Source: a virus (lineage: Duplodnaviria; Caudoviricetes). From it: DNA of 64,000 bases. Each line of letters starts with the position of its first letter. The stretch's first letter is position 1. The DNA lies in the IMG/VR virus record IMGVR_UViG_2901201504_000001, positions 1-64,000 of that record; one strand, written 5' to 3'. Positions 2,745-63,449 of this stretch are shown here, in pieces. The notes under the pieces are model-generated. The model did no database searches and had not been told where the DNA came from. It saw only the letters and a list, made by a program, of their open reading frames with translations. The translations under genes were made by a program, and so were the position numbers.

Positions 2745-2952
2745 GTGCGCTCTACTAAATCTAACCTTTAAAAAACCCTAATAAATAAAGGACTTTTTCC
2801 TCTTCATTTCACAATAAAAGTGTAATTTTATTTGGATGTGTACAAAACATAAGGAATGATAATTCAGATAATAATTGTTTTAGTTAATTTTCTACTTGTG
2901 GAAGTGTAATTGATGGATTTAAGACTCACTCTACGGGGTGAGTTTTTTAATC

Positions 2953-2996
2953 TTGAAATAGAACATACATTCGATTATAATAAGAACATATATTCG
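2953..2996 (+). promoter_or_regulatory. sigmaA promoter overlapped by two LexA/DinR SOS boxes
   Basis: TTGAAA(2953)-17-TATAAT(2976). AGAACATACATTCG (2960-2973) and AGAACATATATTCG (2983-2996) resemble CGAAC-N4-GTTCG. Confidence 0.85.
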
Positions 2997-3014
2997 TATA
3001 AGGTGGGAGATTAG

Positions 3015-3326
3015 ATGGGAATTGAGAAGTATGTAGATAGAGGGATGTTAAAGTGGCAACCAGCTTCATTCATAATTGAACAAAAAGATTTGCTTGATGA
3101 AGCTTATCGTAATTTCTATAAGAAACCTAAGCCGATATTAGATGATGACCAATTAGAGGAATTTAATATAAAAATTACAATTTGGGTAGGTGGATTTGAG
3201 GAGATATATAGAGGGAATATTCAATGTATTGATGAGATTAATAAGAAGATCAAAATGATAGAGGATAATGGAGATTTTAAAATAATTTATACTGATGAGA
3301 TCATTTCTGTTATTGTTGAGGAGTAA
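3015..3326 (+). CDS. yolD: YolD-like protein
   Basis: DRGMLKWQP...KPKPILDDDQLEE signature; SOS-regulated as for yolD. Confidence 0.85.
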   Translation: MGIEKYVDRGMLKWQPASFIIEQKDLLDEAYRNFYKKPKPILDDDQLEEFNIKITIWVGGFEEIYRGNIQCIDEINKKIKMIEDNGDFKIIYTDEIISVIVEE

Positions 3327-3349
3327 ATATGAGTCAGATAAGAAAAAGT

Positions 3350-3381
3350 AAAAGCCCATTTACCATTAGAGTGGGCTTTTG
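3350..3381. terminator. Bidirectional terminator between convergent genes
   Basis: AAAAGCCCA...TGGGCTTTT inverted repeat with A/T tails. Confidence 0.75.
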
Positions 3382-3416
3382 CCAATAGCTTTGTTCGATT
3401 ACTCTTAAGTAATATT

Positions 3417-3713
3417 TCATAACAATGGTGATACGATTATTTGATTTGTATTGCTTGAAAACTTATTTCCGTTTGAAAAACGCACTGTTATTTGAATAGA
3501 ATATCTACCTTCAGTTTTAATATCTTCTTCATTAAGCACAATTTGACACTTTCCATTTTCATGTTCAGTTATAGTAGCTTCTTTTTTGAAAATATTACTA
3601 CCTTTTTTAATAGTAACTGTTACAGTAGCATCAACTAACGATACAACGTCATTACTGTCTTTTACAATAAACGAAACAATCGTCCCGTTATCTCCTACAT
3701 ATATGTTAGACAT
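3417..3713 (-). CDS. BppU-like baseplate upper/Ig-like accessory virion protein
   Basis: VGDNGT...GKCQIVL...GRYSIQITVRF pattern typical of BppU N-terminal domain. Confidence 0.65.
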   Translation of the reverse strand: MSNIYVGDNGTIVSFIVKDSNDVVSLVDATVTVTIKKGSNIFKKEATITEHENGKCQIVLNEEDIKTEGRYSIQITVRFSNGNKFSSNTNQIIVSPLL

Positions 3714-3729
3714 TTATATTTACACCCTC

Positions 3730-5115
3730 CTAAATAAAAGCATCGAATTCTAACGATTTTTTAATGGTTGTTTCAAAATCAATTTTCATTTTAATAAAAT
3801 CTTCTACTTCAACTTTTCTCTTTATAAAGAAGTCTAAGTTAATTTCATTTGTATAATTGTTTCCATACTTATAAATAACTTGCTTGGTTGATAATTCTGA
3901 ATTTTCAGATGTGAAAATGTTAGCATTTATTAGCATCTCTTTTTTACCTGCTTTATAAATTACATTTTTAAATTTAACTAATTTAATTGAATCATTAAAA
4001 ATAACTTGTTTTATCGGATAATCAATATAATTAACTTCGATTTTGTGGATAATTATTTTTAAGTTAGCGTTAACATCAGAACGGATAAACATTTCTTGTT
4101 TTGTATTTACATCCTTAGTTCTCACCTGATAAATTACTAACTGTGTCTGTAAATCATACTGAGATGCTTTATAAATATTCAATTTAACACTTTTAGAAAT
4201 TTGATCGTTTTTATAAAGAATCTGTTTTAAATCAAATTCAATGTTAGATTGTTTAGAAATTACTTGTTTAGATTTCAGATTCATTACTACAGCTTTGAAA
4301 ATAATTTGCTTTGATTTAACACTTGTTTCTGAAGTCTTTAAGATAATTTGTTTTGATTTTAATTGATTATCGCCACTTTTAAAGATTGTTTGTTTTGTTT
4401 TATACTGTGTATTGTTACTTTTACTAATAATCTGCTTTGTTTTAAAAGTAGCTGTTTTTGGTGTGCCTGCATTTACCCCTAATTCTCTCTTAACAGCATA
4501 ATTTTCTAGTATTTCAGATGTACTTAAGACACGATTGTATATTCTTAAATTGTCTATCACTCCAATTGGAGTGTATAAAGATTCAAACGAACCTATTCTT
4601 ATGTTGTCGCTTATAATTCCAGAGAACGTTACACCGACTGCTCCGTCTAATAACTTAACACCATTTTGATAGATTGATGTTTTATCAGAATCTATCGCTA
4701 ATGCAAAATAACTGCCGTTATTTGTTGTAATAGGAGTAGGTAGTGTTAAAGTTTCTGTTAGCGTGCTGCCATAGTAATTATAAAAAATGCGAATTGATTT
4801 TCCATCAATATTAACACTAAAAAAACGCTGATTTGTGCCAAAATAAAAAATATCTGAATTAGTTACGACATTTGTATAAAATTCAATCGTTAAACGTGAT
4901 AATGATGATAGAGGCATGTTGTTAATCTCTACGTGTGCTACTCCACCAGTATTCGTAAAGTAAGAACCATCAGCAGTTAGTGTTATATTGCCATTTATAG
5001 TTCCGTTATATAAGCCTGTTGTTGACGATGAAATATTATTCCACTTTTTTGCAACTTGATCAAAACCTTGCTTACTGTTGTAATATGCCAACAAGCCATT
5101 TTCAACTATAGGCAT
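3730..5115 (-). CDS. LamG/ConA-like lectin domain protein with 14-aa C-terminal repeats (accessory fibre)
   Basis: GLLAYY...GVIDNLRIYNRVLS LamG signature; about ten KxKQxIxK repeats with 14-aa period. Confidence 0.7.
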   Translation of the reverse strand: MPIVENGLLAYYNSKQGFDQVAKKWNNISSSTTGLYNGTINGNITLTADGSYFTNTGGVAHVEINNMPLSSLSRLTIEFYTNVVTNSDIFYFGTNQRFFSVNIDGKSIRIFYNYYGSTLTETLTLPTPITTNNGSYFALAIDSDKTSIYQNGVKLLDGAVGVTFSGIISDNIRIGSFESLYTPIGVIDNLRIYNRVLSTSEILENYAVKRELGVNAGTPKTATFKTKQIISKSNNTQYKTKQTIFKSGDNQLKSKQIILKTSETSVKSKQIIFKAVVMNLKSKQVISKQSNIEFDLKQILYKNDQISKSVKLNIYKASQYDLQTQLVIYQVRTKDVNTKQEMFIRSDVNANLKIIIHKIEVNYIDYPIKQVIFNDSIKLVKFKNVIYKAGKKEMLINANIFTSENSELSTKQVIYKYGNNYTNEINLDFFIKRKVEVEDFIKMKIDFETTIKKSLEFDAFI

Positions 5116-5118
5116 AAT

Positions 5119-7584: not shown

Positions 7585-7597
7585 AAATAATCACATC

Positions 7598-8419: not shown

Positions 8420-8432
8420 TATTAAATTCCTC

Positions 8433-8864
8433 CTAAACTAAATTGTTTTCCATAAATTCAAGTAACATTGCGTTTGTGTTAGCTAAATCTTGCTTGAGTG
8501 CTTCGTTTTCCTGCTTTAAAATGAAGGTTTTATTAGTTAAATCTTCTATAGTTGGTTTCTTAAATTGTTCACTTAAATCTATTAAACCTTCTGGTAATGT
8601 ATCACCATAGGTATATTTGTTTCCTTGTGAATCTTCTAACCATTTGGTGATTTTAGGCACTTCAACACCTTCAATAATTTCAATCAATTTTTGTTCTTCT
8701 TTATATAGAAGACCTTCAACTACAATTACACTGATTTCATTTTCGTTATAACCGTCAGCACTACCGCCCTTAAATTCAATTTTTGATGTCTGTACGCTAG
8801 TGATGTTATTAAAAATTTGATGTATTGTATTATCATTTTTAAAAAATAAAATTCCAATTGCCAT
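8433..8864 (-). CDS. XkdW-like tail fibre chaperone
   Basis: C-terminal LKQENEALKQDLANTNAMLLEFME coiled coil; directly after the tail fibre gene. Confidence 0.5.
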   Translation of the reverse strand: MAIGILFFKNDNTIHQIFNNITSVQTSKIEFKGGSADGYNENEISVIVVEGLLYKEEQKLIEIIEGVEVPKITKWLEDSQGNKYTYGDTLPEGLIDLSEQFKKPTIEDLTNKTFILKQENEALKQDLANTNAMLLEFMENNLV

Positions 8865-8877
8865 TTCTTACTCTCCT

Positions 8878-10714: not shown

Positions 10715-11719
10715 CTAATTTGCTATAGCTTGTATTGTTAATTGGTTGCCAATTTGACAAATGGTTACGACAAATGACGTACCTGTAATTTCATCACTAG
10801 TCCAAACATCAATAATTCCATTAATTTTTTTCTTCAGAATGAATCTCTCTAATACAGCATCATAGAAGAAATAAATTGTTCCGTTTTCTCCTCTAAGTAG
10901 CAATAAAACTTCTTTACTAATTGGATTTTCTATCCATACTTTCAATGAGTGGTCTGCTGATATTGTAAATCCAGAATCGAAATACACTTTTGTTTCATCT
11001 GTAGTATCGATTTTTTCATTGTCTATAAATTGAGATCCGTCTGTTAAACCTATTATTTGTCTAATAAACCACGAAAGTTCAACTCCAGCATTTCCGATAT
11101 TCTTCCCCGAAAGGTCAATGTTCATTTTTGGCCTAAAATAAAAAACGTCAAACGGAATTAAACCACTTGTACCTGTTAAACCTTTGGTACTTGTAGCTTG
11201 AAATTCTATAAAATAGTGCTTTTCAGTTTGTAGATTAGTAAAGAATTGTTCTAGTGGAAGGGAAGTCTTGATATCTGACTTATTGAGTAGATTTTTCTTT
11301 TCATCAAATAGATAGACTATGTAGCTTCTTAATTGAACATTTTCATTTTGTTGATATGTTGCTGTGAAGTTATAGGAGAATGTGTTGACAGTTCCAATAG
11401 GAGATACAGTAACTACAGGGCGACTTGATGTTTGAAATACTTCAGCATCAGACGTTATAGATTCATCTGCTTGATTAAAGATTGTGATTCTAATTTTATA
11501 TTCGTTTCCGTTAATTAAAGTAGAAGGGGGGAGAGTATGCTTTAATGAGTAGGAATTAATCTTGTTAGAAGTCCAAAATAAGCTGTTATCAATATTCAAT
11601 AAAATATCTATTTTATATGCAGTTTGAATGTCTCCAGATACCTTCCATGAGACTTCATTGCTTTCATTAGCATCAATTGCAGTACCTTTCAGCGATATGT
11701 TATATGGCTTTTGTAAAAT
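10715..11719 (-). CDS. Baseplate/tail protein with FN3-like domains; probable ATT start
   Basis: Frame is open 120 nt upstream of the track start. Strong RBS AAGGAGGTG lies 7 nt before ATT at 11719 (ILQKPYNISLKG...). Confidence 0.65.
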   Translation of the reverse strand: MLQKPYNISLKGTAIDANESNEVSWKVSGDIQTAYKIDILLNIDNSLFWTSNKINSYSLKHTLPPSTLINGNEYKIRITIFNQADESITSDAEVFQTSSRPVVTVSPIGTVNTFSYNFTATYQQNENVQLRSYIVYLFDEKKNLLNKSDIKTSLPLEQFFTNLQTEKHYFIEFQATSTKGLTGTSGLIPFDVFYFRPKMNIDLSGKNIGNAGVELSWFIRQIIGLTDGSQFIDNEKIDTTDETKVYFDSGFTISADHSLKVWIENPISKEVLLLLRGENGTIYFFYDAVLERFILKKKINGIIDVWTSDEITGTSFVVTICQIGNQLTIQAIAN

Positions 11720-17100: not shown

Positions 17101-20100
17101 TATCGATAATTTTTTGGAAAGCATTAATATTTTTTTCTGTATCTCTGAGTAGCTTATCAAATTGTTTACTTGCTTCTTCATTAGCTTTGCTTTCAGCTTC
17201 TTCAATTTTACTCTTTGCTTCCTCAACATTGCTCAACATGTCTTGATAGTTCTGTTTAAGCTTCTGAACGTTAGAACGTCTTTGTTCAAGTAAACTATCT
17301 AATCTGTCATCAAAGATACCTGTGTCTCCACCTTTGACAGCAGTCTCAGTTCTAAGCTTAATCGTTTGTTGAATAGCAGTTTCAAGCTCCGCATTAACTT
17401 TAATTAGCTCATTATTCATCTCATCAAATAAACCAGACTTAACTTCAAGTCCAGCATCATCTGATAAAAGAGACATTTTATATTCAATAAACTCGATTTT
17501 TTGAACAGCATCATCAATAGATTTATCACTTACACGGAAAGTCCATTCAATTTTGGCATTGGCATTTTCTTTAAGACTGTTTGTGCTTTCACGATAAGCT
17601 TCTTTAAGTGCTGCTAGTTCTTTTTGTTTCTCTTTTAATGCTTCAGTCGTTAGCTTTTCTTTTTTAAGATATTCTTCTAATGCTTGAATTTGATAGAAAA
17701 GCTGAGTGTCTTTTTGATAGAGCAATTCATTTTGTCTTTCTAATTCAGCACGATACTCTTTACTTGTATCATTGTAATTAGAAAGATTATATTCAGATTC
17801 ACCTAGTAGAAAGTCAACCTTTTCAACACGTTCAGCATATTCAGCCATTGCAGAGTTAATGATATTTAGAGTTGTAGCATCACGTTTATCAGCAATCTCA
17901 TAACGCTCATTCATTAAATCGGTCAGTGTACCTTTTAACTCTTCACGTTTTTTAGCTGTAATTTCTTTAAGTGATAATAAGTATTTAACCTTTTTGATTT
18001 CAAGTTCATTTATTCTTTGTTGTTCATTTACAGATTTACGTTGCTCTTCAAGATTTTTCCGGTATTCTTTAGAAGAAGTATCTAAATGATACGTTCGATT
18101 CTCTAAATCTTGAACTTTATTCTTCTGAATATTTTTCTTGTACTCAAATTCATCAACATATGATTGAACAATTTGATCTTTAAGGTCTAGTATCTGTTGT
18201 TCGAGGTTAGATACATCTGAATTTAGTTCAAGTAATTCAGCTTTAGCTTGGTCAATAGCAGCTAATTGGTCAGCAACGGTTTTTTCTGAAGTAGGGTAGT
18301 TAATATCAGTTACTTTACTAACACCTGTATTAACTGTATTTTGTAGTTGTTTAAGATATTTAACAGCGTCAATAGGCTTGCCATTTGCTTCAATTTGTAA
18401 ATGAAGGTGAGCACCATAAGAATCTCCTGTATTACCAACTTTACCAAGTATTGTTCCAGCATCCACTCGTTGACCTTTTTTAACATCAGGTTTTTTAAGC
18501 ATATGCATGTACTTAGCAACTGTGCCATCATCTTGTTTTACTACAACCCAGTTACCGGCTGAATCAGACCATCCAGATACTAAAACTTTACCAGAGTTAA
18601 CAGCTTTTATTGGTGAGCCAGCTTTACCGTTTGCGAAATCAGTTCCTTGGTGTGGTTTAGAACGAAATGATTCTTTGTCGCCTAGATTAGAGGTGATTTT
18701 AAAATTATTGAAATAGTAATCTGCTACACTTTTAGCATTTGATGATTGACTTTGAGGAGAAGGAGTAGTCGATGCCTTACTTGCTTTATTACCATTACTG
18801 TAATTAGCACCTGTGTAATCTTTATAATAACTAAGTACTTTATTATAGTAATCCTTAGGCTCTTTCCATTCTCCAGACTTAGAGTTTAGCACCTTATTAA
18901 GATTACCCATGCCAGCATTGTATGCAATCAATGCCTTTTTAATATCTCCACCAGTTTTAGCAAGCATTTGAGCAATATACTTAGTTCCGCCCATGATGTT
19001 TTGTAATGGGTCAAATGAATTCTTTACACCTAAATACTTAGCTGTTCCAGGCATTAGTTGCATTAATCCTTTAGCGCCTGCTGAAGATACTGCTTTAGAA
19101 TTAAAACTTGACTCTTTTTTAATTATTGAAGCAATAAGAAAAGGATCGACACCGTAAGTATTTGCAGCTTTATTAATCTCTGCGTGATATTTACCTTTAT
19201 AAGCACCAGCAGGAGCTTTATCTTTTGATGAACCAGATGTAACAGAGTTAGATATATCAATTACACCAGTTTCTTTAATCTTGCCCGATTTAATTTGATT
19301 AGCCAGAGACTTAGCTTCATCTTGTGTAAGTTTCTTTTGTTTCTCAAGTAATTTGATTTCTTCTCGTAAAGCTTTACGGTAATTCTCAGAGTGTGATGCA
19401 AATTTAGCTTTGAGATTATTTTGTTTAGTAAGAGCTGCGTTGATTTCATCTAATTTGATTTTAAATGCATCTGCTACATAAATAGAATTTTTATAAGCTT
19501 CAATATTTTCTTCTGTAGCTTTTTTGTTGTCCTTTTTAGCCTTAGTGTTATCTTTTGTTGATTTTGTGTTTCCTTTAGTTGCACTAGTACCACGATTTGT
19601 AGAGTTAACAATGCCTTCAAGTTTAGACTTAAAACCTTTAAATTCAGGTATTTTAATTTTTGCTAATTCAGACTCTAAACTACCTATTTTATTTTGAGTT
19701 ATCATGTAGTTTTTCTCTGAACGTAAATCGTCACCGCCGTGTTCATTTTGAGCAGTTATTCTAGATAAATAAACATTTTGAGCTTCTTCCAAAGCTTTAA
19801 TTTCTTGCTTGATAATTTCAATACGAGCTTTAGCACCAAGGGCAGCATTAACAGTTTGTTGTTCCTGAGCGCTCAATTGACCTTCAGCAGATAGTTCAAC
19901 GGCTTGTAGAAGGAGATTATTAGCATCAAGTTCTTCTTGCATTGCTAGGATGTTAAGGTTCTTACCATCAATAAGGTGAGGGTAGGCTTCGGATAGAATA
20001 TTAGTGGCGTTAGTAAGCATTGTTTTCATGTTAGCTGATAAGTTTTCTTGTTCAGATAACATTTGGTAAACACCGATTTGTTCCTGCATTGCTGATATAT

Positions 20101-24100: not shown

Positions 24101-24324
24101 AAGATCACCTCTTGAATTAAATTAGGGATATTATAACATGTTTACCAAAATAATTTAATTACAAATAAAAGATGATTTTTATGTAGTAGGGAAGGGGAGG
24201 TTTTGTTCTAGTTTTGTCAGTGTCAAGGAGTCCTTCATTATTGAATACACTATCCGTAATCTTATCGAACAAACATATCACCTCCAAAATAAAGAAGCAC
24301 CCTTTTATAGGGTGCAATAGACAT

Positions 24325-25569: not shown

Positions 25570-26583
25570 CTAACCAAATATCTGATTCTTCTCTTCTTCA
25601 AAGTCACGAAGGTCATAATGTGCTATAGTAGTTGCTACATTTTCATGATGGGCAACATATTTTGAAACTAACTCTAATTTGACACCTTGTTCTAGGAGGT
25701 AAGTTACACATGAGGCTTTAAATAGATGGGGGTTAATACGTCTGCCTAAAATGTCAGAGAGAGTATTTGTACAGAAATAATCAGCCCATGAGGATGACAT
25801 TTGATTAATGATCCCGTTGCTTTTTGTTGTGAAAATATATTCATGGTCATAACCACGCTTTTCAAGCCACAACTTAACATAAGATAAAGCTTCACGATTA
25901 ATCATATAAGGTTCAACCTTACCATCTTCTCCTCGACCTTTCAAACGAATATTATGAGTATAAACAAAACTTGCTTCTTCAGAGAATGGATAGTTAACAA
26001 TTTCTGATTTGAATTGTTTGATTTCTGAACGTCTAGCTCCTACATTAAACGCAACAGCTAACCAAGCCATTCCTAAATAGTTTTGATCGTCTTCAAGAAC
26101 TTTCATCATTTCTTTATATTCATCATAAGTTACTTTTACTTTTTCATATACAGTGTTTTTAGGTATAGCTGGCAAACCTCTAGTGAAATTTCTGAATAAT
26201 TTATAGTCCTCATATCCGTCTTCACCAACAATAATATTTTCAATATAGTTACATAGACTTGATACGCAAGCTTTCTTTAAGTTCTGCCCACTCGAAGACA
26301 TTTTTCTATTATCTCGTAAATAGCTTATGTACCTTAAAAAGTCTCTTTTTGTAACCTTATGTAATGGTTTATTATTCATTGAATTGCAAATATACCATCC
26401 AAATTGTTTTAAAGCAGAAGTGTATTGTTTCTTTGTTTCAGGACTATGGTTTTGTACAGAAATAAATTCTTCCACAAGTTCTCGATATTCTGAGTTAACC
26501 TGTTTCCACATTTCATTAGTTATTTCAGGAAGCTTTCGTGCTCTATCCCTGAGCATGTTCATATTAATACTTTTTTCACTCAA
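25570..26583 (-). CDS. Tyrosine recombinase of the morphogenesis region (YomM-like)
   Basis: SAM-like N-domain, GARRSE, KG, PHLFK, HHEN..TTIAHY. Confidence 0.85.
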   Translation of the reverse strand: MSEKSINMNMLRDRARKLPEITNEMWKQVNSEYRELVEEFISVQNHSPETKKQYTSALKQFGWYICNSMNNKPLHKVTKRDFLRYISYLRDNRKMSSSGQNLKKACVSSLCNYIENIIVGEDGYEDYKLFRNFTRGLPAIPKNTVYEKVKVTYDEYKEMMKVLEDDQNYLGMAWLAVAFNVGARRSEIKQFKSEIVNYPFSEEASFVYTHNIRLKGRGEDGKVEPYMINREALSYVKLWLEKRGYDHEYIFTTKSNGIINQMSSSWADYFCTNTLSDILGRRINPHLFKASCVTYLLEQGVKLELVSKYVAHHENVATTIAHYDLRDFEEEKNQIFG

Positions 26584-29340: not shown

Positions 29341-29436
29341 TATAAATTCCTCCTTATTCCTTATAAAACTGTTGTTTTATTGTGTTAAAAAAATAAAGAG
29401 TAGGGAAGTAGATCCCTACTCATGATATGTATTAAT

Positions 29437-32600: not shown

Positions 32601-33007
32601 TACAAAAAATCCTCTGCTTGATTGATTATCAATCTTTCAATATATCTTTCTTGTTCTGTTACTGAGTTATTTAGGGAATTAATTTGAGTTGAGAAGTTGC
32701 GTAGACCAATATCTTTTTGAAATGGATTTAACAATGTTTCATAATAAGTTTTTTCATTCTTATAAAATACAAGTTTTATAAAGTTAGCTAGAATGAGTAA
32801 TTGGTCATCATTCAATTCTGCATCTACAGACTCCGTTAAATCATCGCACTTAATATTAGTTCTCATTCGATTATTGAAAAGGAGAATGCCGTTATTGATT
32901 TTTGCATAAATCTGTTCATCCGTTTGTGGGATATTAATATCAGGTGTTTTACAGTTATCTAGAAAACTTTTCCAAATTTTATCGTAAGAAGTAGACAAAA
33001 TAATCAC
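32600..33007 (-). CDS. Head-tail connector-like protein (YomZ-like)
   Basis: Helical adaptor-like size and position after capsid region. Confidence 0.5.
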   Translation of the reverse strand: MIILSTSYDKIWKSFLDNCKTPDINIPQTDEQIYAKINNGILLFNNRMRTNIKCDDLTESVDAELNDDQLLILANFIKLVFYKNEKTYYETLLNPFQKDIGLRNFSTQINSLNNSVTEQERYIERLIINQAEDFL

Positions 33008-33010
33008 TCC

Positions 33011-40885: not shown

Positions 40886-41075
40886 AATAATCACCACCAA
40901 TTTTTGTGCAAAATAAAAAGAACATTTTATAAAACACACAAGTAGGGAAGGGAGAGGGAAAACCTACTCATGTGCTTCTAAAACGTTCTAAGAAAGGGGA
41001 AGGATGATGTTTTCGAGGTAATAAAACCTCAATGCTACACTCAAATTTATTAAGTGCAGCTTGAAACTTCATTAT

Positions 41076-43016: not shown

Positions 43017-43066
43017 CCTAATTCCTCCCTTAATCCCTTTAAAATTTGTATTTTATTAATTAATTT

Positions 43067-44774: not shown

Positions 44775-45168
44775 TTATATAATCATCCTTTTACGTTAAT
44801 TTATTTTTAAAATCTATATTATAAGTATGTATTTACTTTTTCTTAACGTTAATTACTACACCATTTTGATCAACTTGATAGGTAAGTGCCATTTAATCAA
44901 CTCCTTTAAATAAAATATTGCTTTTATGTCATTTTGCTGATATGATATAATTGGGTAAAAATGAGGTTTATTTAAAAATAAGAATGAGGGAAAGAATAAA
45001 TAACCCTTTACTTGTACACTAGTTTTTTCTTTCCTTTAACGACGGTTATCTCAAAAAACACCAAAGTCCCTTGAAGCCTACAGCCACAAGGGATTGACGA
45101 GTTTTGAAATTTTGTTGATTTTTTAACGATTGCTGAAACCGTTGGGAGAGTAAGGCTCAAGTCAGTTT

Positions 45169-55627: not shown

Positions 55628-56106
55628 TATGTATCCTCCTTTTTTATTATAAACTATTACAGTATATAGTAAAAATGTCCTAAATAAAAGATATATGTTT
55701 ATAAAAAATAGATTTATAAAGAAGAGTCTATCTATACTATGACTCGAAGCTGAAAATAACGACACTCGAACGATGGTGTATAAAGTGATAAAAATGTAGT
55801 GTTTATAAGAGATTTCGGTAGTTTAGGTGAGATTGAAAGGTGACTCGATAGGCTGAACTCGTAGAAACGTTGATGTACCAATGGTTTGAGCGTGTTTTTG
55901 GAGTGGAATTAGTGAAATTTTAGTGAGTTGAGTAGTGGAAAAGTCAATGTTTATAAGGGGTTTACGAGTCACTTTTCGAGTGTAATTTAGGTGAAAATGA
56001 GGTGATTTTAATTCTGAGTGAGATTATGGGAATAGGGTGATAAAATATAATTTAGTGATTAGGAAAATTATTGTGGTGTGGAAATGGAAGTGCTACGGCT
56101 CTATAC

Positions 56107-56120
56107 AGAACATATATTCC
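56107..56120. promoter_or_regulatory. Possible SOS box
   Basis: AGAACATATATTCC, one base from the box at 2983. Confidence 0.4.
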
Positions 56121-56639
56121 TATTTTAGATGTTTAATAACCCCCGGTAAACCCTTTATTTATAAGGAAAAACGTACATATAATTCTAATTATATGTAACT
56201 TTTAATATTTGGACATATAAATAGCTACATTACACAATTACATATCTTCAAAATAGATAACTAGGATATTTTCATGTATAAAATTTTAAAAAATTAATTC
56301 ATCATTCCAATTTTTACAGCGTTTATTTATATATTTTAGTCCCAGAATCGGCTATAACATAAAGCGGCAAGCCAAAGTATTATAATTATAAACTAAAAGT
56401 AAAGTAATACTAAACTTATCAAAACCAATAATAAATAGTATTATAAAGTTAATATTACTATTACACGTAGTTATCAAAACTACATATAAACTCATCACTT
56501 ATCTATCAATATCACATCCAACTATTCACCTTATCAAAATATACATCAATTGAAATTATAATATAGATAACCATTGTTAATTAAACTAATCAATAGTCAT
56601 AAACAAATTTATATATATTCCCATAAACTACTAACAACC

Positions 56640-56659
56640 TGTGGATAACATGTGTATAA
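56640..56659 (-). promoter_or_regulatory. Tandem DnaA boxes
   Basis: TGTGGATAA (=TTATCCACA) and TGTGTATAA (=TTATACACA). Confidence 0.55.
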
Positions 56660-56827
56660 CTTGTTTATATCATGTTAGTAAACTATAACCACACTACAAT
56701 ATAAACAAAAATAAAATAACGTAAAATACCAAAAATAACTATACCAAACTACTAATATATGGTATAATTGTATTATAAGTAAGGAGGTGAAAATAGTTGA
56801 ATTTATCATACGAAAGGAGGTGAAGAA

Positions 56828-56995
56828 GTGGAGTTAATGTTAGTATTGAGCCTTTTGCTTAACATACTAACTCTTATAGAAAAGTTACTCAACATACGAA
56901 AACTATACAACGACAACAAGAAAATAAACTACAAAGAGGATAAAGAAGAGCAAAAGGAAAAACCTTCTACACGCTGCGAACGTTATAGAAGGTGA
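56828..56995 (+). CDS. YonT-like type I toxin (55 aa, not in ORF track)
   Basis: RBS AAAGGAGGTG; MELMLVLSLLLNILTLIEKLLNIRK...RYRR has a TM, an LT.xEK motif and a charged tail as in YonT. Confidence 0.7.
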   Translation: MELMLVLSLLLNILTLIEKLLNIRKLYNDNKKINYKEDKEEQKEKPSTRCERYRR

Positions 56996-57050
56996 TGAAT
57001 AGTGTAGAAAGGGAACATAAGCTTCATGAACTTACATAAGTTCCCTTTCA
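56955..57050 (-). ncRNA. SR6-like antisense antitoxin RNA
   Basis: Minus-strand TTGCAT-18-TAGTAT (57056-57085), 5' hairpin GAAAGGGAAC..GTTCCCTTTC, terminator ACCTTCTA..TAGAAGGT-TTTT; overlaps toxin 3' end and the next RBS. Confidence 0.6.
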
Positions 57051-57277
57051 AATTAATACTAACATATTCCACAATAAATATGCAAATATTATCCAAATTA
57101 TCAAACCTTGTTTTAATAGTCTTTTCAATTGTCTACATTGTCACACGGATAAACTCTGACACAAATACAACATTTTATATAATTATGGATATACTCTTAG
57201 GTATAACGATCATTCTAGTAGTTTATACATCGTATCTACTGCATAAAGTTAACAAGCAGCGAAATAGTAAGCGTTAA
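57026..57277 (+). CDS. YoyJ-like two-TM protein
   Basis: Two TMs, basic tail, directly after the yonT-like gene. Confidence 0.55.
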   Translation: MNLHKFPFKLILTYSTINMQILSKLSNLVLIVFSIVYIVTRINSDTNTTFYIIMDILLGITIILVVYTSYLLHKVNKQRNSKR

Positions 57278-57499
57278 ACAACAAACGTGATTATGGGACG
57301 ATTATAGTCATTATGGTCGTTCCTTTTTCTTTAAACATTAATAAATAAAAGTTAATTAAATTAAAATAATAGTATACATCACTACCGAAGTATTGTATAA
57401 TTAATACATAAGATAAAGAGAGGAATTAATAAGCATTTAACTAAAATATCTCAATGTCTTACAATTAATACTAAATTAATTTAAAAGGAGTTAATTAAA

Positions 57500-57868
57500 A
57501 TGAAAAAACTTATCACATCTCTAACTATTCTTATTGTACTATCTGTTATTGCTATTACATACAACATTAATCAACCACAAGCTACTGTACAATTACAACA
57601 AAGTACTGGGCAAATCACAACAACTAAACAAGAAACACAATCTCAACCTATCACAGAGTCATACATCATCACTGAAGTAGTACAACATAACAATAAAGAT
57701 ACAGAATACTATGGTCAATCAACAACTGGAGATACAGGTATTTACTTCACTTCTGATTATATCAACTTAATTGATTCACTTGAAGAAGGCGATATAATAA
57801 CGGCACACTTTGAGAATGAATATGATGATAGCTTACTATATGTTCAGAAAGGAGATAATAAACATTAA
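57500..57868 (+). CDS. Membrane-anchored/secreted hypothetical protein
   Basis: Signal/TM N-terminus; RBS AAAAGGAG; upstream sigmaA-like promoter. Confidence 0.65.
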   Translation: MKKLITSLTILIVLSVIAITYNINQPQATVQLQQSTGQITTTKQETQSQPITESYIITEVVQHNNKDTEYYGQSTTGDTGIYFTSDYINLIDSLEEGDIITAHFENEYDDSLLYVQKGDNKH

Positions 57869-57939
57869 ATAAATTAATATAAAATGAAACTTTTTAGTAT
57901 GTTCATACGTCTAATATATAGAAAGGAGGTGAATCATAT

Positions 57940-58122
57940 ATGTTAAGTGGTAAAGACTTTTTCTTTTGTTACAACTATAAACTAAATAAACATCTTCAAA
58001 CAAAAGGCTTTAAATATATTACTCATGCTATCAATATTGATACGAATAAAAAATACTTTATGTATCATAAAACAAATCAACTTAGTGCTGCAATCAATGA
58101 ATATATAAATAATAAACCATGA
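57940..58122 (+). CDS. Small phage protein (DUF5659-like)
   Basis: FFFCYN..L..KGFKYIT.A...T.K.YFMY pattern; strong RBS. Confidence 0.6.
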   Translation: MLSGKDFFFCYNYKLNKHLQTKGFKYITHAINIDTNKKYFMYHKTNQLSAAINEYINNKP

Positions 58123-58134
58123 CAAAGGAGTATA

Positions 58135-59613
58135 ATGCTAATGATCAAATATAATGCGAACACTAAATATTCAGAAGTAATCAGCACCGAAGATATTAAG
58201 AAGTGGAAAGGTAATGTAATATTAGAAGGAGGAACGGCAACCGGTAAAACATATTTCATATTGAATGTGTTAGCTGCATATTGCAAAGATACAAATAAAA
58301 AAATACTCTTCTTATGTAATAGGAATTCTCTACAAGATGAATTAAGGAAAGAAATTATAAAACTTGGATTAACGGACATTATTACTGTACTTACATATCA
58401 AAAAATAGAGCATTCAGTCAAAAATAATGAAGAATTACTATTAAACCATGACTATCTTGTATGTGACGAATTCCATCATGTAAATGAAATATACAATGTT
58501 TATACTGATTTAAGTTATGATTGGATCATTAATCATCCAGGAACTAAAATATTCATAAGTGCTACATGTCACTACATATTTAATATGTTAGTTAATAAAA
58601 ATATTGTACCAAGTGAGCAACGCTATTACATACCAAAAGATTATTCATATGTAGATAATCTATATTTCTATTCAAAAAATAAGGATATAACAGAAATCAT
58701 TAACGATAAATTATTTAATACAAATGATAAGATTATATATTTCTCTAGTAATCTAGAAAGAGCAATTGAAATATATAAATGTTTCAAAGAACAATCTTCT
58801 TTCTATTCCTCTAAACATAGTAAAAAAGGAGCTAAATATATTACTGAAAACTGCATCCAGAATGAAACGTTTAATAGTAGATTACTAGTTACTACAAAAG
58901 CACTTGACGTTGGAATTACATTAAAAGATAAATCAATTAAACATGTAATAACAGATATGTTCGATATTGATACGCTGATACAATGTATAGGCCGTAAACG
59001 TATCATTGATGAAAACGATTCATGTAATTTTTATATTAAGAATCATAGCTCAAACAGTATGAAAGGAAATAAAAGTAGGTTAATAAGAATTAAACAACCA
59101 ATCAAGGTACTAATTAAAGATAAAGAACTATTTTTCGATACATATGTAAAAGATAGAAAGTTTCATAATAATTACATATATAAGGATGAAGAAGGTAACT
59201 ATACATACAATCATATTGCATACAAAAGATTAGTTACTCAGTTACTTGATATAGATGATATGGAAGGATGGTCTAATAATTACAATAAGACTAAAAAAGG
59301 TTTTAAAGGCTTCCTATTAGAAAGGTTAGGTGATACCATGACAAATATTATTGATATGGATGAAATGAAGCAAGTAGAAGAGTTAAATAATCTAGATAGT
59401 TATATTAATTCTATTATAGGTAAACCACTACTCAAAGATCAGAGAGAAGAACTTTTTCAAAAAATATCGTTAAAGGATTCTAGAGGAAGATTACAAAAAA
59501 CATTAGGTACAATAAACGGTTATTTAATAAATAATTTCAATGTTAATATTCAAACAAAAACTATAAATGTTGAAGGTAAGAGAAAGACTGCATGGATATT
59601 ATCTGATTTATAG
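58135..59613 (+). CDS. SF2 DExH helicase-like protein (YonV-like)
   Basis: GGTATGKT, VCDEFH, ISAT, TKALDVGI, QCIGRKR. Confidence 0.85.
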   Translation: MLMIKYNANTKYSEVISTEDIKKWKGNVILEGGTATGKTYFILNVLAAYCKDTNKKILFLCNRNSLQDELRKEIIKLGLTDIITVLTYQKIEHSVKNNEELLLNHDYLVCDEFHHVNEIYNVYTDLSYDWIINHPGTKIFISATCHYIFNMLVNKNIVPSEQRYYIPKDYSYVDNLYFYSKNKDITEIINDKLFNTNDKIIYFSSNLERAIEIYKCFKEQSSFYSSKHSKKGAKYITENCIQNETFNSRLLVTTKALDVGITLKDKSIKHVITDMFDIDTLIQCIGRKRIIDENDSCNFYIKNHSSNSMKGNKSRLIRIKQPIKVLIKDKELFFDTYVKDRKFHNNYIYKDEEGNYTYNHIAYKRLVTQLLDIDDMEGWSNNYNKTKKGFKGFLLERLGDTMTNIIDMDEMKQVEELNNLDSYINSIIGKPLLKDQREELFQKISLKDSRGRLQKTLGTINGYLINNFNVNIQTKTINVEGKRKTAWILSDL

Positions 59614-59626
59614 ATTAAAAGTTAAA

Positions 59627-59687
59627 TAATGCAAAATATTTGGAGTTTACTATAATATATAGTAGAATCCAGATTTTTTGCACATTA
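59627..59687. repeat. ~60-bp imperfect palindrome after helicase
   Basis: TAATGCAAAA..TTGGA..TACTATA / TATAGTA..TCCAG..TTTTGCACATTA. Confidence 0.6.
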
Positions 59688-59897
59688 CTATAAATAGATG
59701 TAGCAGTTTGTATAGAACTACCACGGAAGTGCTGTGGTAGTTTTCTTTTCGCTTTGCAGCTCAAAGGGATATACTATAATAATTTTAAAAATAAAAGTAA
59801 AATAATTTAAAATAATAATTTACATTTATAACCTAATCATGTATACTTAAGATAGTTAAAAGATACAAGTTAATACATATAAAGGGGATATGTTAAC

Positions 59898-60189
59898 ATG
59901 AATATAAAATTAAATGAAATTGAATTAAAATCAATCTACACATTAAATGATGAAGCTCAAACTTCACTAGATCACGCTAGAAACTTAGGTTACTGGTTAG
60001 GCTGCAGCACATAAAAATAACGCTTTTAAAACTCAACTTAAAAAACTTGTAAAAGCTGGAGTATTAACAAAACTATTTCATACATACGAAAATGAATACG
60101 TTGAAGCGGTTTATAATTTTGAAGACGGGAACCAGGTTTCATTCTTCGGCCATAATCATATGAGTATGAATTTATATTACAACTATTAA
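59898..60189 (+). pseudogene. Frameshifted hypothetical gene (~96 codons if corrected)
   Basis: ORF MNIKLNE..GYWL stops at 60014; the +1 frame continues AAAHKNNAF..YYNY to 60189. Confidence 0.45.
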
Positions 60190-60290
60190 AAATTAATTAA
60201 CGTAAAACATAAATACTTAGAAGGTTATAAAAAGCCTTCTAAGTAGCTAATAAAAGAGTGTTTTTATTTGATGAATTGGAGGTAAATAGT

Positions 60291-60761
60291 ATGTTCAGAA
60301 TCCCATGTAGTAAATGTAATGGTAAAGGAATCATCCCTCATTTTAGCCATGTTGATGAAGGATTATGCTTTCAATGTAGCGGATCAATGTTCCAGGAAGT
60401 TAATGAAGAAGAATACCAAGATTATTTGAAACATATTGAAAGAATAAAACAAGGTAGCTATATTTTATTCAATAACGGAAAAGTGGAATATTATTCAACA
60501 GTAAGCGAAATTAACAAGAAATATGGAAACTTCTATTGTGGTAACTATGCGGAGCGTTCAATGCATGTTGCATATAGAGACAAAGACATTGTTTATACAA
60601 AAAATAAAGGATTTAAGAGTAAGGAAGTTAATAAAATTAAAAACTGGTGTTTAACAGAGCGTCTTGGAAAGCTTAAACAAATGTTAGAAAAGGAAAATGA
60701 TATTGATTTTAGAGGTATCATTATTAGTAAAATACAGGAATACGAACAACTTTTATGCTAA
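60291..60761 (+). CDS. Zn-finger (CxxCxGxG) phage protein
   Basis: CSKCNGKG..H...G.CFQCSG; RBS GGAGG. Confidence 0.7.
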   Translation: MFRIPCSKCNGKGIIPHFSHVDEGLCFQCSGSMFQEVNEEEYQDYLKHIERIKQGSYILFNNGKVEYYSTVSEINKKYGNFYCGNYAERSMHVAYRDKDIVYTKNKGFKSKEVNKIKNWCLTERLGKLKQMLEKENDIDFRGIIISKIQEYEQLLC

Positions 60762-60797
60762 TTGTTTTTAAAGAGTAATGAAATGGAGGTTTTAACA

Positions 60798-61019
60798 ATG
60801 AATTATGCTTTAAGAAACAAAATAATTAAAGAAAATAAATTTTATTCATTGCTAGAAAGTAATAAACAATACAGATTACAAGAATATTGCATGAAAACAA
60901 AAAAAGTTGTAGTAGGAATTATTCAAGGTGATCCAGAAAAATATAATACAGGCACAGGGAAGCTCACTTTTAAATATTTTGATACATGGGAAAACGCTTA
61001 TACTCAACTATCACAATAA
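60798..61019 (+). CDS. Hypothetical protein
   Basis: RBS GGAGG before ATG 60798. Confidence 0.6.
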   Translation: MNYALRNKIIKENKFYSLLESNKQYRLQEYCMKTKKVVVGIIQGDPEKYNTGTGKLTFKYFDTWENAYTQLSQ

Positions 61020-61052
61020 AAAATTTAATTTTAATCGAAAGTAAGGATATTG

Positions 61053-61169
61053 ATGCAATTAGATAAGTATTGCCTGGAATGTGGCGAATCTCAAGAAATG
61101 AATGCAAAGGAATGTTTCTACTGCGAATCTGAAGAGCTGGATACAATGGATATAGATGATATTGTTTAA
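61053..61169 (+). CDS. 38-aa zinc-ribbon peptide (not in ORF track)
   Basis: MQLDKYCLECG..KECFYCESEEL; followed by terminator AAGCAACCT..AGGTTGTTTT. Confidence 0.5.
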   Translation: MQLDKYCLECGESQEMNAKECFYCESEELDTMDIDDIV

Positions 61170-61300
61170 GCAACCTATCAAGGTTGTTTTTTATTGCTTA
61201 AAGTTCGAATATTATTTAATTCCCTATGTTTTCTTGTAATATAAATAGATACCAGTACATACCATTACATATTGGCAAGATTATAATAGGGGGAATGAAA

Positions 61301-61750
61301 ATGTCTAAACAGTTTCAGTTAACGCGTCAAATGTTATTGAATTTTGTACAAGATCTAAATGAAGAAGTAAGTCAAGTTCAACCGGAAGGATTCAACAATA
61401 ATATTCGTTGGCACATCGGTCATTTACTTGTAACATCTGAGAGCTTTATGTTTGGCTATCCAAAGAAATCAACAAATATTCCAGTGGAATATGCTTCTTT
61501 ATTTAATATGGGAACAAATCCTGCTGCATGGGAAGGTGAAGTACCTTCTATACAAGAGTTATCTAAATGTTTAAAAGAACAAGCTAAGCGTATTAATGCC
61601 ATTCCCGAAGATTTTTTTGAACAAAAGTTACCGTTTAAATTCCCTTTAGATGGTATTGAGAAATATTCAGATCTTTATGCTTTAATGCTGCATCATGAAT
61701 CAGAGCATTTAGGGCAAATGAAGGCAATGAAAAGAGCGATACAATTCTAA
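61301..61750 (+). CDS. DinB/YfiT-family protein (putative thiol transferase)
   Basis: PEGFNNNIRWHIGH..HESEHLGQM metal-binding histidines. Confidence 0.85.
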   Translation: MSKQFQLTRQMLLNFVQDLNEEVSQVQPEGFNNNIRWHIGHLLVTSESFMFGYPKKSTNIPVEYASLFNMGTNPAAWEGEVPSIQELSKCLKEQAKRINAIPEDFFEQKLPFKFPLDGIEKYSDLYALMLHHESEHLGQMKAMKRAIQF

Positions 61751-61864
61751 AATAATGATAGAAAGTATTAATGAAGCCTCACTTTGAACGGGGCTTCTTT
61801 TGTTTTGTCTAATAAAACAGTTCTTTTATTTAAATGATTGAAGACTCTAATTACATAAACAATG

Positions 61865-61893
61865 ACATCAATGTTGGCTTTTTTTCATACAAT
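61865..61893 (+). promoter_or_regulatory. Putative mother-cell (sigmaE/K) promoter for cwlJ-like gene
   Basis: -10 CATACAAT at 61886-61893; weak -35 ACATCAA. Confidence 0.45.
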
Positions 61894-61911
61894 ATCTTTG
61901 GGGTGAGAAAA

Positions 61912-62352
61912 ATGCCAAGAGTTAAATATACAGAATCTGACGTAGATTTAATGGCAAGGTTAATGAGGGCAGAAGCCGAGGGTGAAGGTCAACAAGGGAT
62001 GTTATATGTTGGTAATGTAGTGGTTAATCGTGCTGTAGCGGATTGTTTAGACTTTAAGGAAGTAAGAACGATCGAACAAGTCGTTTATCAAGTACAAGGA
62101 GGTAATTATTCTTTTGAAGCTGTTCAAAAAGGAAATCAATTTTACCAAAGGGCAAGGTCTCAAGAAAAAAGGTTAGCAAGACAGAATTTGGAGTTTTGGA
62201 GAGACCATCCAGCGAAATTTGCCCTTTGGTATTTTAATCCATATGCTCCTTGTCCTCCAACATGGTACGACCAACCTTTTAGCGGCCAATTTAAAAACCA
62301 TTGTTTTTATGAACCACAAGCTAACACATGTGAAAGTGTTTATTCCGGTTAG
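61912..62352 (+). CDS. cwlJ: Spore cortex-lytic enzyme, CwlJ family
   Basis: DVDLMARLMRAEAEGEG..GNV..FEAV..FYQRAR..PAKFALWYF..CP..WY.QPF..FKNHCFY closely matches CwlJ. Confidence 0.9.
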   Translation: MPRVKYTESDVDLMARLMRAEAEGEGQQGMLYVGNVVVNRAVADCLDFKEVRTIEQVVYQVQGGNYSFEAVQKGNQFYQRARSQEKRLARQNLEFWRDHPAKFALWYFNPYAPCPPTWYDQPFSGQFKNHCFYEPQANTCESVYSG

Positions 62353-62545
62353 GTAACTAGTAACTATAATTAATTCTATAATTTAAATAAAAAATATTAG
62401 AGAGACCACTATTGGGTGGTCTTATTTCTATTCATTCCATAATAAAATGTTGAATTTAATTATTTAAATAGTAAAAAGAAGTTGTTATCAATGTTGGCGT
62501 TATTTGTTATAATTTAGAAAAAAGTGTATTTCGAGGTATATTACT

Positions 62546-63034
62546 GTGAAATTTTATAAATTATTTATAGTTTTAATATTATGTTTCTTAGTAGTATGTG
62601 TAAATAAAACTGATTATTCCAAAAAAACAAAAAATGAGAAAATCGTACATAATTATCAACAAAAGCTCAAAGGTGAAGGGGAGAATTGGATAGTTAAACT
62701 AAATATAGATGGGAATTTAACATTAAATAATCCACTTTATCCTAATGAATATCTATTTGATAACACTCAACAGATTAAAATCCAATATAAAGGAGCTGTT
62801 GAGGATTTAGGAGAGCAGGTTACCTATATTTATAAAAATAAAGTCTGGGAAAGTCCTGTCTATATTTCGTCCAGAAATGGATTTCCAAGCACTTTTTTAG
62901 AAGATAAGTTTGGAGGTACAGGTCTTATTAAAGTAGAAAACTTCACGAATTCTTTTCCACTTTTTGAAACTGCAAACAATGTAACAATTACTTGGAAAGA
63001 TAATAAAGAAGTTATAACTTTACAAAATGAATAA
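62546..63034 (+). CDS. Putative exported protein/lipoprotein
   Basis: Hydrophobic N-terminus with Cys; KGEGENW and ITW motifs; own extended -10. Confidence 0.6.
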   Translation: MKFYKLFIVLILCFLVVCVNKTDYSKKTKNEKIVHNYQQKLKGEGENWIVKLNIDGNLTLNNPLYPNEYLFDNTQQIKIQYKGAVEDLGEQVTYIYKNKVWESPVYISSRNGFPSTFLEDKFGGTGLIKVENFTNSFPLFETANNVTITWKDNKEVITLQNE

Positions 63035-63115
63035 GAAGTACTACAAAGATAATTGATAGTGTTATTGTTATTAATACAATACAAACGTTCGCTTATATCT
63101 ATTATTAAAGACCAT

Positions 63116-63319
63116 TCACTTTCTAGAATGGTCTTTTGCATTCTTCCTTTCTATGTATCCAAGTGTGTAATAATAAACTGCCCAAAATACAAAAATAATA
63201 AAAAAACTATAATTTTTCTTATCTGAGGGCAGAAGATAAAAGCTGATAAAAGTTACTATCGCAAAGGGGGGCATTAACATCCAATATAATTTTCGTTTTG
63301 TCATATACGTCATCCTCAA
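63116..63319 (-). CDS. Small two-TM membrane protein
   Basis: Two hydrophobic segments; RBS GAGG suggests start at MTKRK. Confidence 0.5.
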   Translation of the reverse strand: MRMTYMTKRKLYWMLMPPFAIVTFISFYLLPSDKKNYSFFIIFVFWAVYYYTLGYIERKNAKDHSRK

Positions 63320-63449
63320 ATAATTTTTTCTAATTTATAATAACATGAATGTTTATAATATTTACTCATACTCATAATAAAACAGATATTTTATTATTTT
63401 TGATCAATTGACTAGCTGAAAATGCTAGTTTTTTCTTTGTATTTTATAA

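Follow-up and report, generated by a model that had tools for sequence, protein, structure and literature searches.

A spaced palindrome with mutually unlike spacers at gene junctions of SPbeta-like phages, a candidate site for module exchange

The window analysed here is the first 64 kb of one 137,119-bp virus record (IMGVR_UViG_2901201504_000001, genome G000 of this study; GC 30.4%), which we assign by gene content to the SPbeta-like phages. It carries a dispersed palindrome with the core T-R-A-A-A, six variable bases, T-T-T-Y-A, whose exact form is taken here as the 18-mer ATAAAA-N6-TTTTAT. The element is real, widespread and new as far as literature searches reach. It is very probably a site on duplex DNA for a symmetric phage protein, and genome comparisons indicate, with equally high confidence, that it stands at the ends of segments which related phages have exchanged. 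Tentatively, and with our doubts slightly the heavier, we interpret the palindromes as spacer-specific, heterospecific crossover sites of the tyrosine-recombinase type that would serve module exchange. The behaviour of the spacers is the new and most telling result, and its statistics point to partner-specific crossover. The clean exchange of modules at gene borders in mosaic phage genomes is an old open question, and here one junction signal is common to a family of large temperate phages, among them SPbeta and phi3T, the model phages of Bacillus subtilis.

Abundance and distribution of the palindrome

Eleven exact copies of ATAAAA-N6-TTTTAT were found in the window (at 2814, 11599, 17464, 24165, 29363, 32762, 40913, 44910, 60250, 61812 and 63377), compared with a mean of 0.16 and a maximum of 1 in 100 dinucleotide-preserving shuffles of the window. 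When the spacing was varied, TAAAA-Nk-TTTTA occurred 13 times at k = 6 and 0 to 4 times at each other k from 0 to 15, and the longer arms ATAAAA-Nk-TTTTAT gave 11 copies at k = 6, one at k = 13 and none at the rest. The whole 137-kb record held 32 exact 18-mers and 48 copies of TAAAA-N6-TTTTA, against 0 to 7 at other values of k. With A or G allowed at arm position 3 (TRAAA-N6-TTTYA), 63 sites were counted in the record, 14 of them in the window. Chance or AT-richness as the source of the motif is ruled out by the shuffles, by the peak at k = 6 only and by a scan of all 5-mer spaced palindromes, in which TRAAA-N6-TTTYA ranked first in every genome scanned.

An initial annotation, made from the letters of the window, had named a peak at k = 6 as the check on its proposal of a cassette-exchange or protein-binding site; the peak is present in the window and does not reflect an AT-rich background. 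Eight of the nine copies that it had called exact were found again, each shifted by one base (an optional leading A had been counted), and the ninth, given at 43038 and here at 43039, has TTAAAA as its left arm. Three exact copies had been missed (11599, 17464 and 32762), those at 17464 and 32762 lying inside open reading frames (ORFs). The degenerate copies near 57879, 61017 and 62442 exist, with 1 to 3 arm mismatches each, and the description of the sites as nearly all intergenic was roughly right, 9 of the 14 TRAAA-N6-TTTYA sites in the window being at or between ORF ends.

The peak of TAAAA-N6-TTTTA at k = 6 was also found in SPbeta (34 copies), phi3T (30), Goe11 (34), Psychrobacillus phage Perkons (17), Geobacillus virus E3 (30) and a Staphylococcus SPbeta-like phage (17 sites). 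It was present in prophages of Nanhaiella (50), Virgibacillus (30), Fictibacillus (34) and three Paenibacillus species (49 to 68, counted in the TRAAA form), as well as in five IMG/VR proviruses (24 to 70 sites). SPbeta-like phages carry 20 to 70 copies each. The comparison of prophage and host chromosome that had been proposed with the annotation was made on the related prophage of Nanhaiella (genome G001, 5.3 Mb), and it showed enrichment in the prophage and none in the host chromosome. This genome has 65 exact 18-mers in total; among the matches listed (50 of 65), 39 fell into the prophage at 4,017,845-4,156,388 (139 kb) and 11 into the preceding 4.0 Mb, and the motif density in the prophage was about 100-fold that of the host chromosome. 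A host global regulator is an unlikely reader of the sites, since the host chromosome is not enriched. Four exact 18-mers were seen within 11 kb of the Nanhaiella chromosome (G001:C1:231785-243157), remote from the SPbeta-like prophage, and this cluster may be a second related element.

As a class, the motif is without annotation in the SPbeta record, where 2 of 34 sites (2622-2651, 116406-116431) match features that the depositors named stem_loop. The palindrome was undescribed in the literature as far as searches of the main texts of papers reach, and nothing on it came from searches directed at SroE, YopQ and YomM. The Sro repressors are said to bind multiple sites (reportedly in work of Brady et al. 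from 2023), which may bear on novelty.

Position relative to genes

Only 12 of the 63 sites of the record lie deep inside ORFs, although the crude ORF set covers 87.9%. For a closer description we used 248 sites from nine genomes that had an upstream stop codon as well as a downstream ribosome site and start codon on the same strand. The TRA triplet of the arm was itself the upstream stop codon in 68 of these, 154 were at most 10 nt from the stop, and the start codon mostly followed 16 to 30 nt past the end of the motif. If a terminator is present, it follows the gene and is itself followed by the site and then by the ribosome site. Sites were densest in the small early gene arrays around the sro-like operon. 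In SPbeta the promoters of aimR and yorE have a site upstream, yet at yosX it is within the leader, so that the place relative to promoters is not fixed.

A symmetric site on duplex DNA

The core is accompanied by weaker symmetric flanks, T-Y-T-n-w beside each arm, which results in an 11-6-11 layout of 28 bp. One consensus describes both the left arm and, read as its complement, the right arm. No covariation was observed at variable mirrored positions, and pairing was avoided within the spacer. A or G at arm position 3 was chosen independently by the two arms, with counts for the four combinations of 17/14/11/10 in Perkons and 12/18/17/16, 13/23/16/16 and 5/13/18/13 in Paenibacillus. Read in the sense orientation, the wobble-compatible combination G..T was found 69 times and the mismatch A..C 84 times. 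Independent, identical half-sites on a duplex imply one protein subunit per arm. The layout of inverted arms around a 6-bp spacer, taken in the initial annotation as Xer/dif-type geometry, is not diagnostic of recombinases; other dimeric DNA binders also use a 5-N6-5 layout. Its second suggestion, a genome-wide binding site of a phage protein, is well supported by the phage-specific and family-wide occurrence of the motif and by the independence of its half-sites.

The same features suit a global operator, roadblock or architectural site only, at which a conserved dimeric phage protein would silence, insulate or organise a large AT-rich genome. Half-sites that are independent and symmetric, a motif that is phage-specific and family-wide, and a density that is highest in the small early gene arrays around the sro-like operon all favour such a role, which we regard as doubtful, though a serious possibility. 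The variable position of the sites with respect to promoters (upstream at aimR and yorE, inside the leader at yosX) is not that of a classical operator.

An RNA role was considered as well, in which an AU hairpin between cistrons would act in mRNA processing, stability or translational control. It could explain why sites are found just upstream of ribosome sites, with a peak at 16-30 nt between motif end and start codon, and why the TRA triplet is the upstream stop codon in 68/248 cases. We nevertheless consider it highly improbable. Hairpins, whether of RNA or cruciform, are ruled out by the lack of covariation, by the independence of the arms and by A.C (84) being as common as G.U (69), and double variants were not in excess. 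Many sites, moreover, follow terminators or precede promoters, and by a hand nearest-neighbour estimate a stem of six A-U pairs closing a 6-nt loop is not stable. For window 56001-64000, no RNA data set containing it was listed.

Known transcription signals were compared with the palindrome. It is not a sigma-A promoter: no signal was obtained, with 66 promoter-like sites in the 55.5-64 kb region compared with 61.8 in shuffles, and a -35-like signal was absent from the flank table. Neither is it the late promoter of YonO. According to the available text of PMC5467207, YonO starts the late operon at one place; the mapped start upstream of yonK, converted from that source, corresponds to position 60451 of the SPbeta record, and the nearest site scoring at least 10/12 is at 61158.

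Spacer statistics

Spacers were analysed at 624 sites from 14 genomes, nine used for discovery (448 sites) and five held out (176 sites). None of the 624 spacers was self-complementary, whereas about 14 were expected; a column-permutation null gave 10.2 for the discovery set and 3.9 for the hold-out set. All 63 spacers of the record are different from one another, as are all 36 of SPbeta. Within genomes, identical spacers in either orientation made up 2 of 15,340 pairs. The rate between unrelated genomes (233 of 168,333 pairs) gives an expectation of 21.2 within genomes (Poisson P 1.5e-7), divided into 10.2 same-orientation pairs, of which 2 were observed, and 11.0 reverse-complement pairs, of which none was. 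Column permutation within genomes led to an expectation of 15.4 identical pairs, with a minimum of 5 in 400 permutations. The depletion extended to spacers with one mismatch, with 167 pairs observed versus 245 by the between-genome rate or 232 by column permutation, and 0 of 400 permutations were as low as 167. Under the strictest null, in which the letters were shuffled within each spacer, 8.05 identical pairs were expected in the first nine genomes versus 2 found (P 0.01). The hold-out genomes had no identical spacers in 3,488 pairs (4.8 expected, P 0.008) and no self-complementary ones (3.9 expected, P 0.023). Other exact repeats of 16 to 24 bp are tolerated, the record having 131 blocks of at least 16 bp, so the uniqueness of the spacers is not general repeat avoidance.

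In the lox, FRT and dif systems, sites with the same spacer react with each other. Mutually unlike, asymmetric spacers are what would be expected if same-spacer sites reacted together here as well, and an ordinary operator would give no reason for them. From the depletion within genomes we infer that the spacer sets the choice of partner. The palindrome thus has the arrangement of a tyrosine-recombinase core site, inverted arms flanking a spacer of 6-8 bp, in its peak at N6 only and its arms of about 11 bp, and the asymmetry of its spacers (0/624 self-complementary, identical pairs 2 vs 21.2) was replicated in the hold-out set. An operator leaves it unexplained why spacers should be unique, avoid near-identity and never be self-complementary while repeats of at least 16 bp are tolerated.

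Homology breakpoints and exchange boundaries

In comparisons of SPbeta, phi3T and Goe11, 8-14% of the ends of high-scoring segment pairs fell at most 15 bp from a site centre, compared with 4-7% when gene gaps and 0.7-0.9% when random places were taken. Gaps with a site carried a breakpoint in 46-58% of cases versus 21-23% for gaps without one, with odds ratios of 3.2-4.7 and P values of 0.012, 0.0009 and 0.005 in three tests that are not independent of one another. The same site with the same spacer was found joined to different left or right neighbours among phages, both sides about equally. Tracts of 100% identity between SPbeta and phi3T, which we read as traces of recent exchange, had 18 informative edges, and 7 of these were 6.5-15.5 bp away from a site centre (gene-gap null 0.10). 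One of these tracts, of 1,404 bp and containing a methyltransferase gene, ran exactly from site to site with 0 differences, and 26 differences followed in the next 500 bp. A site that is an operator only needs an extra assumption to accommodate tracts cut exactly from site to site; the coincidence of exchange boundaries with sites would then come about because the sites are conserved islands filling short intergenic gaps.

A related phage in run X2 (38% of sampled words) gave a boundary within the window itself. Homology to this phage resumes exactly at 61811|61812, the left edge of a site; the phage is without window 55.9-61.8 kb and shares 47.6-55.9 kb and 61.8-63.55 kb. X2 cover was absent from about 56.0 to 61.3 kb (helicase, DinB-like and small genes) except for one bin, a gap that is interpreted only jointly with the loose end at 61811. 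An X2 contig also ended at 63395, next to the site at 63377, contig ends being weak evidence. In the region of the YonO-like gene (45.0-47.6 kb), X2 cover consisted only of short pieces at 88% likeness or more.

Enrichment at the sites could also arise from a passive junction module, similar to the PeSL elements of T4-type phages, whose arms and short flanks would offer microhomology to the general recombination of phage or host without a dedicated enzyme. Besides the breakpoints themselves, a deletion in phi3T that joins two sites with different spacers, with the crossover in the common left arm, would be accounted for in this way. T4-type phages provide a precedent, as described in the available part of PMC2839356, and the group encodes annealing and recombination proteins (SPbeta annotation). 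We consider such a module improbable all the same. The arms give only 5-7 identical bases and the unique spacers remove longer homology; neither a promoter signal (66 vs 61.8, as above) nor selected stem pairing was found; and spacer repulsion reaches pairs with one mismatch, which is finer than expected of general recombination at 16 bp.

Proposed mechanism and candidate proteins

In the crossover interpretation, a phage protein of the tyrosine-recombinase family would bind the arms as a dimer, and strands would be exchanged only between sites with the same 6-bp spacer. The partners would be the same junction on two co-resident SPbeta-like genomes, either phage and prophage or two co-infecting phages, and two such exchanges would swap the module lying between them. 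Unique spacers would prevent deletions and inversions within one genome. The wider proposition, that SPbeta-like phages carry a built-in cassette exchange with 20-70 heterospecific sites, their mosaicism being programmed and their genome safe from self-deletion, is offered with somewhat greater reserve. If exchange of this kind takes place, it would provide a mechanism for ordered mosaicism, a role for YomM and YopP/SroD and a natural set of orthogonal recombination sites. Should they be operators instead, they would supply the targets so far missing for a second global regulator of the SPbeta lysis-lysogeny system.

Two proteins are candidate binders or enzymes for the sites, judged from their sequences. 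The first is encoded in the window at 25570..26583 on the minus strand, a YomM-family protein of 337 aa with the tyrosine-recombinase fold, homologous to YomM and not to YopR. Both a core-binding and a catalytic domain were recognised (PF13495, E 9.8e-09; PF00589, E 6.3e-11). No other protein of the group is as evenly conserved as YomM, which has 64-77% identity in five whole phage genomes, a mean column identity of 74% among 12 homologues from Staphylococcus to Paenibacillus phages and identities of 62-81% across phages of at least six host genera. The site itself is nearly invariant too, in agreement with this conservation. Of the catalytic set, Arg I, Lys, His and Tyr are conserved in the alignment of 12 sequences and in that to XerA chain 4a8e. 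No link between YomM subtype and the preference for A or G at arm position 3 was seen, R/Y being used in both of two Paenibacillus prophages whose YomM proteins differ in the box-II variant. The second candidate is a YopP/SroD-like protein encoded outside the window, at 89937-90953 of the record, which matches PF00589 and apparently keeps R, K, HxxR, H and Y. As the enzyme of the proposed exchange, one would choose between the YopP/SroD-like protein with its apparently intact catalytic set and the YomM-like protein with Lys for the second Arg.

As reader of a mere operator, a non-catalytic YomM or YopP, the HU-like protein or the YopQ/SroE-like "second repressor" with DndB/ParB fold could be considered. 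The YopQ/SroE-like protein of the record carries a DndB domain, and the available text of bioRxiv 10.1101/2025.11.27.690993 describes SroE as a second repressor without a clear place in the circuit. According to the same source, SroF is a monomeric binder with different motifs in phi3T and SPbeta, so SroF is not the reader of an invariant palindrome. A site that is invariant across hetero-immune phages would also be odd for an immunity repressor, given that the SroF motifs differ (10.1101/2025.11.27.690993).

A number of observations weigh against the sites being used for crossover. The catalytic set of the YomM-like protein is R-K-H-K-H-Y: its HxxR box has the sequence H-L-F-K, all 12 homologues have Lys where the second Arg is expected, and the full set R-K-H-R-H/W-Y is thus not present in the protein at 25570-26583. 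This counts against the proposal in the initial annotation that the recombinase at 25570 may be the enzyme, and in favour of an operator, which the placement of most breakpoints off the sites favours too. The catalytic set of YopP was judged by eye only. SroF/MrpR is a precedent for the recombinase fold as a pure DNA binder, and thus for SPbeta phages using such a protein as a repressor with dispersed sites, in the available text of PMC10516654 and bioRxiv 10.1101/2025.11.27.690993. Most gap breakpoints (39-41 of 51-55) were away from sites, and so were 5 of the 6 X2 loose ends. Edges of identity tracts coincided with sites in 2 of 16 cases for SPbeta-Goe11 and 0 of 13 for phi3T-Goe11, which makes 9 of 47 overall versus a null of 0.10, only a marginal excess. 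The phi3T deletion between sites with different spacers is not predicted by spacer-dependent exchange. In laboratory hybrids of phi3Ts and SPbeta the one crossover that was resolved (to 39 bp) had no site within 7 kb, and the other 6 of 7 switches fell into identity blocks of 1.4-13 kb, in which they are unresolvable. Gaps with the motif cluster in accessory arrays rich in breakpoints, so that part of the enrichment may be confounded. The spacer statistics were found post hoc, though confirmed by the hold-out set, and orthologous junctions of distant phages share only 1-4 of 6 spacer letters (6 pairs).

Taking both sides into consideration, the cassette-boundary idea of the initial annotation stands in part. 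It agrees with the enrichment of breakpoints in gaps with sites (46-58% vs 21-23%), the identity edges (7/18), the boundary at 61811|61812 and the unique, asymmetric spacers; it does not cover the majority of breakpoints, which are elsewhere.

Comparison with known systems

The closest parallels to the proposed exchange are heterospecific lox and FRT sites, used with Cre and Flp for cassette exchange. They likewise have symmetric inverted arms around a short asymmetric spacer, and modules are bounded by two different sites; the unique spacers would here make partners only of sites with the same spacer. The differences are that the phages have a natural array of 20-70 sites, that the spacer is 6 and not 8 bp, that strong conservation of the arms is limited to 5-6 bp and that the exchange is a proposed one.

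With pdif and Xer-dif sites, acted on by XerC/XerD, the palindrome shares the 28-bp 11-6-11 layout and the position flanking accessory genes. Its two arms, however, have one consensus and are not distinct XerC and XerD arms, which speaks against the pdif-like system envisaged at first. The sites occur in a phage family across many host genera, and the host chromosome is without them save for a background of 11 in 4 Mb, among the matches listed.

Integron attC sites, the substrates of IntI, resemble the palindrome in being located at the 3' end of small co-oriented genes, often over the stop codon, and in the presence of a tyrosine recombinase gene on the element. The site described here is only 16-28 bp long and shows no selection for a folded single strand or for hairpin pairing; the genes keep their own ribosome sites, and some their own terminators, and no attI/Pc platform was seen. 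An integron-like system, also suggested in the annotation, is therefore not supported.

PeSL elements of T4-type phages, in the account available from PMC2839356, resemble the palindrome in that they recur between small, non-essential early genes and fall on the boundaries of insertions, deletions and replacements between close relatives. A PeSL is, however, a sigma-70 promoter with a terminator stem-loop and acts by homology between copies, whereas the palindrome has no promoter signal or stem selection and its unique spacers keep the copies unlike.

SPBRE, the operator of MrpR/YopR/SroF, is a dispersed element of the same phage family that is bound by a protein of tyrosine-recombinase fold, according to the available text of PMC10516654. 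It reads AAATACAAAWAATATGTATAT, and we found it upstream of 9 of the 10 MrpR targets defined in SPbeta by ChAP-seq, the ten genes being taken from the available part of PMC10516654. The palindrome is a separate element beside it and not SPBRE. SPBRE has about 10 copies bound by a monomer over 24-26 bp (available text of PMC10516654 and bioRxiv 10.1101/2025.11.27.690993), and its sequence in phi3T is not that in SPbeta, whereas the palindrome stays the same in phages from Staphylococcus to Paenibacillus.

Individual sites in the window

The first exact site, ATAAAAGTGTAATTTTAT at 2814..2831, is 155 nt past the serine recombinase gene and ahead of a YolD-like gene. A variant with TTAAAA as left arm at 8516..8533 lies within ORF 8433-8864(-), and its status is uncertain. 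At 11599..11616, between tail genes, an exact site coincides with the 5' end of ORF 10715-11599(-); the orthologous junction of Geobacillus virus E3 likewise carries a site, with 4 of 6 spacer letters in common. Two exact sites are internal to genes, that at 17464..17481 in the 3080-aa tape-measure ORF (14117-23359, -) and that at 32762..32779 in ORF 32600-33007(-).

The exact site at 24165..24182 occupies the gap that separates a YomJ/K-like ORF (23420-24100, -) from the region downstream of the YomM-like gene, and is followed by a hairpin-like GTAGGGAAGG repeat. An exact site at 29363..29380 has a terminator-like hairpin on one side and the ribosome site of ORF 28798-29340(-) on the other. 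The one at 40913..40930, with a terminator-like hairpin adjoining, overlaps the 5' end of ORF 39989-40939(-), probably upstream of the true start. The variant site TTAAAATTTGTATTTTAT at 43039..43056 is found between the PIN-PhoH gene (43067-44308, -) and the ribosome site of ORF 42831-43016(-), 10 nt from the stop. At 44910..44927 an exact site is present upstream of the HU-like gene (44433-44774, -), and SPbeta has a site with one mismatch at the matching place upstream of yonN.

In the right-hand part, the degenerate site ATAAAATGAAACTTTTTA at 57879..57896 has a second repeated motif, AAATAAATTAAT, directly before it. An exact site at 60250..60267 is located between a hairpin and the ribosome site of an ORF starting near 60273 (+). 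Degenerate copies are TAAAAAATTTAATTTTAA at 61017..61034 and ATAAAATGTTGAATTTAA at 62442..62459. The exact site at 61812..61829 comes past the terminator of the DinB-like gene and ahead of the cell-wall hydrolase gene (61834-62352), and the last, at 63377..63394, is ahead of a terminator-like hairpin (63410-63430).

Two further repeated elements accompany the palindrome at junctions. The dispersed motif AAATAAATTAAT, at 57860-57878 in the window, has a 12-mer that occurs 14 times in the record (for example at 95770, 100817, 101129 and 102162), and it is often found between palindrome and ribosome site or abutting the left arm (ATTAAT+ATAAAA, 10 times). Terminator-like hairpins with the common stem GTAGGGAAG / CTTCCCTAC are present near 24185, 29400 and 40945, directly beside three palindromes of the late, minus-strand gene cluster.

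Phage context and neighbouring genes

The assignment to the SPbeta-like phages is based on a large serine recombinase gene adjoining a fragment of a radical-SAM gene, on the 3080-aa tape-measure ORF, the YomM-like gene and the HU-like gene at the coordinates given above, and on an 845-aa YonO-like ORF with 59% identity to SPbeta yonO (tblastn). Genes resembling YopP, YopQ and YopR/MrpR are present in the record outside the window. No close relatives of window 40-64 kb were found by megablast against the phage collection, and the nearest genomes, about 70% identical in conserved genes, are too distant for breakpoint mapping.

At the start of the record (window 1-2658) a radical-SAM ORF is cut by the window start and is followed by the serine recombinase, which has 55% identity to those of phi3T and Goe11. 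These two phages integrate into kamA, according to a review table. The record thus seems to be written in prophage order, including part of the target gene.

A protein with a KwaB-like domain (Kiwa defence) is encoded at 27750-28709 (-) among late genes, beside genes similar to YomM, YomN and YomO, and is probably an accessory defence gene. At 48194-49581 (+) a gene of the tubulin/FtsZ family is preceded by one for a 93-aa protein with weak winged-helix matches, and the two resemble a segregation pair of the TubR/TubZ type. An ATPase of the FtsK/SpoIIIE family is encoded at 52603-54843. Finally, several short contigs of higher depth from run X1 mapped to the CwlJ/SleB-type cell-wall hydrolase gene (window 61846-62445), which suggests further copies of this gene elsewhere in the X1 sample.

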